Of a DNA stretch of 64,000 bases, positions 19,353 to 63,933 are shown piece after piece (the first letter of the stretch is position 1; the number at the start of each line of letters is the position of its first letter). The DNA comes from Lingula anatina (taxonomy: Eukaryota; Animalia; Brachiopoda): NCBI GenBank assembly GCA_051362555.1, contig CM120641.1, forward strand, positions 13,268,001 to 13,332,000, written 5' to 3'. The notes beneath the pieces are model-generated. The model had not been told where the DNA came from. It did not search any database and saw nothing but the letters and a program-made list of their open reading frames with translations. A program made the translations under genes and the position numbers.

Positions 19353-22300
19353 ATGAAGAGCGGTTTCTGGGCCATTATCATTTTGCTGACAAGCAGTTTA
19401 GTGGTGAGTATTGTTTACAAAAAAGTACGTACACAGACACGCACACACACACACACACAGACACACACACACACACACACGAGAAACAGAGAGAGAGAGT
19501 GAAAGAGAGAGGGGGTCATAAAGTAGTTAGTTAATTAAGTGTGACGGTTTATGTTACTTGTACCTCAACGCTTCTTATGATCCCGTATATCACATTCTAC
19601 CATGCACATTGTAACAAGCTTGAAAGAAAGCATTTGTTCGACCTATTACGAAAAAAGGCCCATTGTTATGTTTCAGCATTTAAGATATAGCGAAAGCTTT
19701 CACAATAGGAAAAAAATGCAAAACAATATAGTAGGCCTATACCCGGGATACAGCTGTTTCCTATCGTTATATTTATTACTGGTAGGCCTTACAGTAGCGG
19801 GGTTTACTTCTCGGTCAGTCTGTAGACTAAAGCTATTTGCTTTTTAGAAAGCTTACGTGGTGCAATTCATTACCTATGCAAAAGTAAACATGGTCCCGCA
19901 TCGGGGGTGTGGCCCACTTTGCGTGATCAATTTCCATTCGCAATAGCACCTCACTATTGATTTTCAAGCTATATATTTTTACTGATTAAATGTATAGGTC
20001 GAATTATTGGTATCAAAATAAGACACTTTATTGATTGATAACTTTTACATTACTTAAAGGTATTTTCTATCCCTACATACTCTACAATCTAACTGCATAG
20101 CCGGGTCAAGCAATGATTTGTGAGTACATGTAGAAAAAATTGCTTTTTTTTCAAGGAAAATTCATTTAGGTGAGTAAACGCGGTATAAAGCACCTTAAAT
20201 AGGCTTGTTTACACCATTTAAACATCGTTCTATTAAAGAAAGTCGAGGTCATGCACGGAGGCTTATTACCCTCTACCAGGGTCTCAGTAATCATTGTGGA
20301 CATTTTTTGCTGAATCGACATCAGACCAAATTGACTGTCTATTTATCTGGAAACCTATTATATCTGTGAATATCTGTGAAAAATCAATCTGTCGCCCTGG
20401 TAGAGAGTAGAGGCTTACTATGTATGACGAGAGACGGGATTACGGTCTTATTGGAACATACGGGAAAGAGCAATACCTCTAGCACACTCCCTACCTCCCC
20501 CCCCCCCCCCCACCGCCACACACAGACATTACCCATTGCTTGCAAACGAGAGAAATCTGTGCGTCAATGAAGTAGTAAGGCCTATAGCAGCAGATACTCC
20601 TGACACTGTCAGACAGTATGACGTTTGTAGAAAATATAAAGGAGAACATTTGATCAAACCATTATCCGTTTGTGTATACGCAAATTGCAGCAAACATGCT
20701 ATCCCAATTCCGTTAACACAATTGCATTCAGTTGGAGAAAATTTAAAAGAAGACCTGTTTATGTCTGTGAAGTGGCCCGTTTGTCCTGATCAATTGCAAA
20801 ATAGATGTTATGTTAGATGTAATAATTCGTCAATAAAAACATCTCAAGCAAATTTCTTTTAATCTGAAACCTATACAGGTATAAAACTCTATTATTTTCG
20901 TTGAAAGTGGCAGGTTGTCCCGTTATTGAGAACATAGGCGTGGCTGACTTAAGGATTATTCCAGTGTGCTGGTTTGTCCGTACAGCACAATCAGAATTAT
21001 TTGCGAAAGGCTTGAAACATTTTTACTTAAATATATTGTTTTCCTTCCTACGTGACGTGGGTGCATATAAGCATATGCTTTATGTAACGTGGATCAGTTC
21101 TTGCGAGGGAATACGGTTGAGATGCAATGTCTTTGCTCTTGAAAGTACTCGTCAATGGAAAAATGAAATGGCATAAAAAGGCGTAATTTTGCATTTTTTT
21201 GTATTGTTAGATGATTTAATGCTTTTAATTACCAACACTCTTCGAGAACTTTCATTCACCAATCACCAAATCACTATGTTATAAGAAGCCATCAAGTGAA
21301 ACTCGTTACAAATGATTTCTCAAACATACGACAGTAAACATTTGCCTCCGTGCTCTGATTTAAATAGCTTTCTCCCGCATCATGTTCACACCAACAAACT
21401 AGATGAAACTTTTCAAGGTATACAGTTTAAACTTTTGTCTTGAAATAGAAATGTGGAGTTATAACTCTTTCAACGCCTCCTACATTGGCTCCCACACGTT
21501 TATCGTTTCCGTGCCTGTCTCCACCTGCTGGGTTTATCGCCTACAATATATATATTATCCCTTTACTGTATTTTCCCACTCCTTTTTCTAGCTTCCCTTT
21601 GTTTGGCATTTACCTACAGGGCCCATATTTATGTGTTTTCACCCTGTTTACGCGTATTATATTATATTTCATTTTGTGTTTTACTTAAACTTGTTTATAC
21701 TAAACCACTTTTCTCTATTTCTTTGCAATTTCACTTTCCTCATTTATCTTAGTTTATGTCAAACGTCTTGTTTTCTTGATGAATATTGTAAACCGTCACC
21801 CCTTTTCCTCTTTCTTAATTTCGGGTATTTATAATGTATTTGTCAGGTAAGTAACAGATATAAAAACGCAGCAGTTTAATCCACCCTATAGGCTTTTAGA
21901 ACAAGATACAGGTATCCTAATAAATCATATTCACTAAAGCATCAACGAGCGTTACGTAAAATGATATAAGCATGTGTTGTTTGATATTTTCCAACAAAAG
22001 TTACGCAGCAACCAGAGAATTCTCACACAAAAGTGAGTATTGCCTTTTATACCTTACACAGAAGTTCATCCTCGTGTCATTAAGAAAATGTAATAGCCTA
22101 TGGATTTGGAGTCATTGCATTTTGGTAACCCTATTTTCCTGCTCTGATACAACTGTACCAGTGAACATAAATATATATATTAGATTGTATGGAAAAATTC
22201 TTTTTTTAATATCGTGCATGGCATTATAATGTTTAAGACGTGTCGCAAACCAAACACCAAATAGGGGGCCTACAACAGTCTTTTATTAAAAGGTCCGTTC

Positions 22301-63933: not shown

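Follow-up and report, generated by a model that had tools for sequence, protein, structure and literature searches.

Background

In Uninflatable (Uif) the domains are arranged in the order lectin, LDLa, CUBs, CCPs, EGFs and CCPs, the second EGF carries a long insert, and the eighth CCP is interrupted just before FA58C. PMC3340373 counts one CLECT, three CUBs and eight CCPs in Uif and describes the roles of its non-EGF domains as merely proposed, and Uif is an apical transmembrane protein (PMC12867482). Proteins with multiple VWD domains are classed by their extra domains, with varied mosaics in amphioxus, and an N-terminal FCGBP_N (IgGFc_binding) domain marks FCGBP (PMC4948705, available text). 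FCGBP is reported to be a C-terminal disulfide dimer joined via its last VWD, its unpaired cysteines forming no bonds (PMC11796319), and its GDPH cleavage is reported to stabilise the units while a disulfide keeps strand 1 attached (PMC10880436). Zonadhesin is laid out as MAM domains, mucin repeats and VWD domains (PMC1325057). In limpet pedal mucus a cross-linking role has been proposed for the mucus proteins, and repetitive mucus and bioadhesive genes are noted to be hard to assemble from short reads (PMC7333891). Exchange of the head in front of a VWD array is already known from zonadhesin, tectorin and the amphioxus FCGBP-like proteins, and is not a new mechanism.

The locus reported here lies in a window of 64,000 nucleotides from the brachiopod Lingula anatina (assembly GCA_051362555.1, contig CM120641.1, positions 13,268,001 to 13,332,000). 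In the gene at this locus a head of lectin, LDLa, CUB, sushi (CCP) and EGF domains is followed by a mucin spacer and an FCGBP-type array of VWD units; the chimeric gene is real and is expressed, and, if its head is that of Uif, it would add a candidate to the invertebrate mucus and bioadhesive proteomes.

Methods

The window DNA has 35% GC. Stretches 18800-20600 and 26800-64000 were inspected for exons, which were placed by eye, the splice sites and the reading frame then being verified by script. Pfam was run on 40 of the 53 single exons (leaving out the signal exon and 12 exons of units 4-6) and on 121 of the 126 intron open reading frames (ORFs) of at least 44 aa (five over simple repeats, and one short intron stretch, were left out). 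RNA reads from four (X1, X3, X4 and X7) of nine same-species raw-read runs were mapped on 41640-44060 only; the joints of the 22 exons upstream of 41640 and the 26 exons downstream of 44060, including the 7.8-kb intron and the lectin borders, are predicted from the DNA. The VWD profile search covered proteins of up to 4841 residues and scored 7979 candidates, of which 21 were kept. The tree comprised 25 rows, leaving out 11 of the 21 relatives and all units with fewer than 250 residues aligned.

Results and discussion

The chimeric gene spans 19353-63933 on the plus strand, as do all its features below, and consists of 53 exons with 10,727 coding bases, which give an open frame of 3575 codons; each of the 52 introns is GT-AG, and GC is 0.44 in the exons versus 0.33 in the introns. 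The single phase-consistent exon chain of a preliminary description of this DNA is thus confirmed. Exon 1 (19353-19403) contains the start codon and 17 hydrophobic, signal-peptide-like codons and ends in a phase-0 GT donor, and the intron between it and exon 2, modelled from sequence alone, measures 7814 bases. The last exon ends at a phase-2 GT donor without a stop, so that the gene runs past the window end. The 3575 residues carry 51 N-glycosylation sequons and, inside the window, contain no hydrophobic 19-residue stretch; from this and the signal-like start the product is predicted to be secreted. Every module border is in phase 1, from the LDLa-CUB1 junction through the unit borders, which permits exon shuffling, although such phases are usual for these domains; to that extent the borders from CUB1 onwards agree with the shuffling origin proposed earlier.

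In the 40 exons scanned, Pfam found LDLa, CUB, sushi, EGF_CA, VWD, C8, TIL, TILa and EGF_3. The domain string of the preliminary description stands for the signal peptide, the lectin, LDLa, three CUB, the first four sushi, two EGF, the mucin stretch and the VWD units, and has to be amended at three points: the second sushi block, given as four CCPs, comprises three full domains plus a truncated eighth (Pfam model positions 1-30 of 56); the array, given as six or more units, comprises five complete units, with only the VWD of a sixth at the window end; and the units, said to end in TILa or EGF, all end in TILa plus EGF together in one exon.

The head is 1130 residues long and opens with a degenerate C-type lectin-like domain followed by LDLa (27218-27326, 27884-27965, 29531-29640, 29941-30030, 30329-30414 and 30619-30781). 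LDLa was identified by Pfam (E 7e-12), which gave no match for the five small exons preceding the exon that holds the lectin end and LDLa; a PDB search gave none for two lectin exons. The one line of support for the lectin is a profile of our own from three fetched lectin domains, which scored 17.8 bits as against 6.8 for the best of 500 shuffles. The lectin-like domain has eight cysteines, and a motif check of it found no EPN, QPD or WND. The three CUB domains (31136-33649) occupy two exons each, and all six half-exons match Pfam CUB (E 3e-12 to 0.014). Sushi domains 1-4 (33855-35693), each on one phase 1-1 exon, all match Pfam Sushi, as do all three of domains 5-7 (39368-40387), with E values of 1.5e-10 to 7.8e-7 for the seven full sushi exons. 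Between the two blocks lie two calcium-binding EGF exons (36064-36198 and 36616-36786; Pfam EGF_CA and translation), the second with a long insert ahead of its last cysteine. Odd cysteine counts were found in CUB1, CUB3, CCP1 (five cysteines), the truncated CCP8 and VWD2. CCP3 (34949-35122) keeps only two cysteines, the second and fourth having gone together, that is, as one whole disulfide.

The first part of the eighth sushi domain is encoded at 41668-41787 (Pfam Sushi 1-30 of 56, E 0.014), an exon joined to position 42619 in the X7 RNA, and the domain is cut after its third cysteine. The next exon, at 42619-42723, begins with seven codons that close the truncated sushi and supply this third cysteine, and then opens the Thr/Ser-rich spacer; the switch from sushi to mucin therefore lies inside this fusion exon, both joints of which are present in X7. 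Two tandem-duplicated mucin exons follow (42957-43136 and 43459-43647; 162 of 180 bases alike), with their outer joints in X7. The whole spacer has 151 aa, of which 47% are Ser or Thr and 10% Pro, and no cysteine.

The array begins with unit 1 (43791-46649), in which a VWD containing GDPH is followed by C8, TIL, TILa and EGF, as assigned by Pfam and by a best PDB match to FCGBP, with an RNA joint leading into the unit. Unit 2 (46796-49079) has GDPH, unit 3 (49366-54130) is divergent and lacks it (both by translation and Pfam), units 4 (54450-56721) and 5 (60522-62786) have GDPH and are recent copies by translation and copy comparison, and translation of 63147-63933 gives the VWD of unit 6, again with GDPH, which is therefore present in five of the six VWDs. 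Pfam recognised VWD, C8, TIL, TILa (weakly) and EGF_3 in units 1-3, and the array contains a cysteine ahead of GDPH and the CGxCG motif. The VWD, C8 and TIL exons of units 2, 4 and 5 and of the sixth VWD are 96-100% alike, and their introns 62-98%, which indicates real copies and not an assembly repeat; an assembly artefact was rejected because the copies differ, more in introns than in exons and mostly at synonymous sites. Units 2, 4 and 5 are near-identical and show pN/pS of 0.12-0.14 over 359 codons: the array has grown recently in tandem under purifying selection. Units 1 and 3 are older, with about 47-49% identity to the other units. The VWDs of units 1, 2 and 4 are strongly basic (+11 to +16) and the C8-TIL parts acidic. 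An RGD occurs in the EGF of units 1, 3, 4 and 5 (TILa-EGF exons, 46463-62786), the carriers including recent copies; among 170 fetched proteins RGD was found in 3 of 89 comparable EGF motifs.

Relatives of the array and comparison with described families

In the PDB search the best match of exon VWD1a was FCGBP (best stretch 50 bits; MUC5AC 27), FCGBP was the sole match of TIL1, and C8 had no match. An insensitive word search with VWD1a among proteins of up to 2000 residues yielded 18 candidates, none of which scored. In the profile search the best two of the 21 VWD relatives were amphioxus IgGFc-binding-protein-like proteins (P0151 and P0152), whose units can be aligned with the 416-residue unit from end to end, through the EGF, at up to 33-36% identity; no member of the 21 has Sushi or CUB among its listed domains. 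The tree joined five window units in one group (92/82, or 97/96 together with one long unnamed row) beside the amphioxus units on the FCGBP-like side, apart from the hemocytin, SCO-spondin and kielin rows, in a topology with many long branches and with its deeper joins unstarred. The FCGBP-type array claimed earlier is therefore upheld by the PDB match, by the amphioxus relatives and by the tree placement.

The likeness to FCGBP, P0151 and P0152 lies in tandem VWD-C8-TIL-TILa units with GDPH and in near-identical recent repeats, and for the amphioxus proteins also in units ending in EGF and in the lectin domains of P0151. The window gene differs from FCGBP in having no FCGBP_N, a domain that the same Pfam library detects in P0151, and in carrying instead the lectin/LDLa/CUB/sushi/EGF head and a mucin spacer; because FCGBP_N is absent from the exons scanned and from the 121 intron ORFs, the array is FCGBP-like and the gene is not FCGBP. 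Ten amphioxus VWD units have charges of -13 to +4, as against the +11 to +16 of window VWDs 1, 2 and 4. With zonadhesin, a testis-expressed protein with a membrane anchor at its C-terminus, the gene shares a binding head, a mucin spacer and tandem D units, but it has no MAM (Pfam, 40 exons) and its spacer has just 151 residues. Gel-forming mucins, hemolectin, SCO-spondin and alpha-tectorin likewise have multiple VWD-C8-TIL units, which score lower against the window units, and in the tree the FCGBP-like side does not include the rows of hemocytin, SCO-spondin and kielin. Gel-forming mucins have N-terminal D units, a long PTS region and a cystine knot at the C-terminus, and alpha-tectorin has a NIDO head and a ZP tail; the D units here are not N-terminal but come after the head and a short PTS, and neither NIDO nor FA58C occurs in the exons or intron ORFs scanned. 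The gene was accordingly not assigned to FCGBP, zonadhesin, tectorin or the gel mucins, whose defining domains are missing. The limpet pedal-mucus proteins P-vulgata_1-4 and 14 resemble the product as large, Cys-rich secreted VWD mosaics with lectin, EGF or LDLa, but none of the 14 proteins tabulated in the available part of PMC7333891 combines CUB or sushi with VWD.

No such protein appears in the available text of PMC3390340, PMC11452194, PMC12549020, PMC10140915, PMC5842395, PMC10341621, PMC7444548, PMC13178913 or bioRxiv 10.1101/2025.01.02.631076, and the architecture was not found described in the literature within reach of the search, which stopped short of figures, subscription papers and database-only annotations. 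The architecture is likely to be novel, as judged by protein searches of low sensitivity for single exons, and relatives of the chimera may well exist unannotated.

Proposed origin and working of the protein

We lean, with modest confidence, towards a predicted secreted protein of mucus or apical matrix, longer than 3575 residues, in which the head of a Uif-type duplicate, a mucin spacer and FCGBP-type units would form a protease-resistant molecule displaying a binding head. The 5' part of a duplicated Uif-type gene would have been cut within the eighth sushi domain, a Thr/Ser-rich stretch would have arisen in the same exon as the cut, and a phase-1 intron would have linked the gene of this fusion exon to a VWD-C8-TIL-TILa-EGF module of the kind also present in amphioxus FCGBP-like proteins. 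The spacer may be O-glycosylated and keep head and array apart. By analogy with FCGBP, each GDPH would self-cleave, the pieces would stay held by disulfides, and the units would resist proteases. Because the lectin lacks the usual sugar motifs, we propose that the head may bind proteins, rather than act as a calcium-dependent sugar lectin. The odd cysteines of CUB1, CUB3, CCP1, the truncated CCP8 and VWD2 may cross-link the protein into a gel or matrix, the alternation of basic VWD and acidic C8-TIL blocks may contribute to cross-linking, and the RGD in four EGFs could serve cross-linking or cell binding. The polymer-forming scaffold proposed in the preliminary description is no more than a possibility, FCGBP, the closest solved relative, being reported as a dimer whose unpaired cysteines form no bonds.

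The same chimera might instead be membrane-anchored, as a zonadhesin-like or Uif-like apical adhesion protein whose anchor, transmembrane or GPI, would lie past the window end, and which possibly has a part in gamete recognition. The succession of head, mucin and D array is the zonadhesin layout in the available text of PMC1325057, Uif is itself an apical transmembrane protein (PMC12867482, in part), expression varies between the RNA runs, and the RGD in the EGFs of units 1, 3, 4 and 5 stands against 3 of 89 motifs elsewhere; on the other side, no hydrophobic 19-residue stretch occurs in the 3575 residues inside the window, the nearest units are those of FCGBP-like proteins, for which no membrane anchor is listed among the domains, and the purifying selection among the repeats is unlike the rapid change that would be expected of gamete recognition. 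We therefore consider an anchored protein unlikely. The secreted reading can be extended, tentatively and below even confidence, to a lineage-restricted gene in which a Uif duplicate, cut in its eighth sushi, may have been grafted on a still-growing FCGBP-type array to give a mucus or glue protein of undescribed architecture that is secreted, cleaves itself and has patterned charges.

Relation of the head to Uif

Published domain counts, rather than a sequence alignment, make it probable that the head descends from Uif. Like Uif, the window head has a single CLECT domain, three CUBs and eight CCPs, with the qualification that its lectin is weak and its eighth CCP truncated, and EGF domains and a signal peptide are also present in both. 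The two FA58C, three HYR, 18 EGF-like repeats and transmembrane segment of Uif are missing from the window gene, in which a degenerate lectin and a truncated eighth CCP are found and mucin and VWD units follow instead. Pfam detected no FA58C, HYR or FCGBP_N in the 40 exons or the 121 intron ORFs, and hidden exons for these domains were accordingly rejected (0 of 121 intron ORFs). Searches with single parts of the gene returned no Uif among the matches of CCP6, the second EGF, VWD1a, CUB1b or the VWD profile. The CCP6 word search, insensitive and confined to proteins of up to 2000 residues, gave one candidate and no scored match, and CCP6 fell in generic sushi clusters of the ESM Atlas; an exhaustive search with the second EGF exon collected 150 multi-EGF proteins, none of which matches both the CUB and the sushi parts of the head (E 1e-4), and none of the 14 scanned has a Uif-like domain set; and a metagenome scan with CUB1b gave eight loci with short, weak CUB-like matches only.

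CLECT, CUB, sushi and EGF are all promiscuous domains, and the head could have been assembled independently, as a lectin/LDLa/CUB/sushi/EGF mosaic on an FCGBP-like array, in one gene and perhaps common in databases. Precedents for such mixing are the 26 amphioxus FCGBP_N proteins with varied extra domains, one of them labelled CUB and Sushi (PMC4948705, Fig S5, in which VWD is unreadable), and the limpet mucus proteins that mix VWD with lectin, EGF and LDLa, or in one case hold CUB, sushi and lectin without VWD (PMC7333891, available part); the intron ORFs, moreover, hold no FA58C or HYR remnant. Nevertheless we regard an independent mosaic as quite improbable: the head agrees exactly with the Uif counts of PMC3340373 for CLECT (one), CUB (three) and CCP (eight), the last sushi is cut mid-domain, as expected if a longer gene was truncated, Sushi and CUB are listed for none of the 21 VWD relatives, and figure S4 of PMC4948705, on protostome multi-VWD proteins, has neither label in its text layer.

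If the head is that of Uif, the locus would be a clean, dated-in-place case in which truncation and exon shuffling have produced a new giant extracellular protein and the point of fusion can be read within a single exon, and the N-terminal third of Uif would be isolated as a module working alone. The recognition head of an apical-membrane organiser would then have been reused as the tip of a secreted mucus or glue protein.

Transcription across the fusion exon

Within 41640-44060, run X7 contains spliced reads for the joint from the last sushi exon to the fusion exon (41787|42619; six reads, two starts), from the fusion exon to the first mucin exon (42723|42957; six reads, five starts) and from the second mucin exon to VWD1 (43647|43791; nine reads, eight starts). 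All three are GT-AG and coincide exactly with modelled exon borders. No joint connecting the two mucin exons (43136|43459) is listed for the four runs, and in X7 the depth over the 5' half of mucin exon 2 is near 1 versus about 7 around it. The continuity of the transcript over 41787-43791, as claimed in the preliminary description, is therefore secured at three of its four joints, while the fourth is not listed. In the bins 43179-43421 between the mucin exons the depth is zero in all four runs, so that neither a read-through end nor a new start is seen there. Exon depth in this interval is at most 2 in X1 and X3, and X4 has no exon reads. X7 differs from the window at 15 listed positions in exons, and 11 of these changes are synonymous. 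In the X7 reads, mucin exon 1 carries exon-2 letters at two places and exon 2 carries an exon-1 letter at one; because of these swaps the allele of the X7 animal differs and reads may be misplaced. The swapped letters (43000, 43030 and 43607) suggest gene conversion or a copy-number polymorphism of the spacer.

The boundary joints in X7 and the open, in-phase chain support the earlier claim of a head and an array combined in one gene, and a single head-to-array transcript is very probable. That two adjacent genes are present, a truncated Uif-like head ending after mucin exon 1 and a VWD-array gene starting at exon 2, is scarcely credible: the unlisted 43136|43459 joint, the thin cover on the 5' half of the second mucin exon and four ATG-led hydrophobic stretches within introns 42468-43287 would fit it, but the intron bins between the mucin exons have zero depth in all four runs, these exons are tandem copies with like flanking introns, in phase and without a stop, the ATG stretches sit in AT-rich intron or repeat with no joint from them listed, and allelic exchange, indicated by the swapped letters, can misplace reads. 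A pseudogene is ruled out by the open frame, the spliced RNA and the synonymous bias.

Neighbouring and intronic features

Upstream of the chimeric gene lies a multi-exon fasciclin-repeat gene (2339-15772, plus strand), with Pfam matches to Fasciclin in 7 of the 23 ORFs examined. It opens with a signal-like stretch, its last exon is hydrophobic and may represent a GPI signal, and it ends about 3.6 kb before the ATG of the chimeric gene. A 338-codon open frame at 3-1016 (plus strand) without a Pfam match is probably the last exon of another gene. On the intronic repeats at 42207-42530 and 41883-41963, RNA reads that stem from other loci and are 90-95% alike accumulate in their hundreds; since these reads run into unlike sequence, the repeats represent a transcribed interspersed family and not exons. 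In the intron before CCP8, a 143-codon frame on the minus strand (40982-41410) has a coiled-coil start and sub-threshold Pfam matches only, and presumably resembles a decayed retrotransposon ORF1. At 36461-36620 an 80-base tandem duplication has doubled the splice acceptor in front of the second EGF exon, and the upstream copy could be a cryptic acceptor. Intronic tandem arrays were found at 56976-58643, 38988-39159 and 42765-42892, with periods of 161, 336, 60 and 62 bases, and the 161-base unit resembles intron sequence at about 49750-50050.
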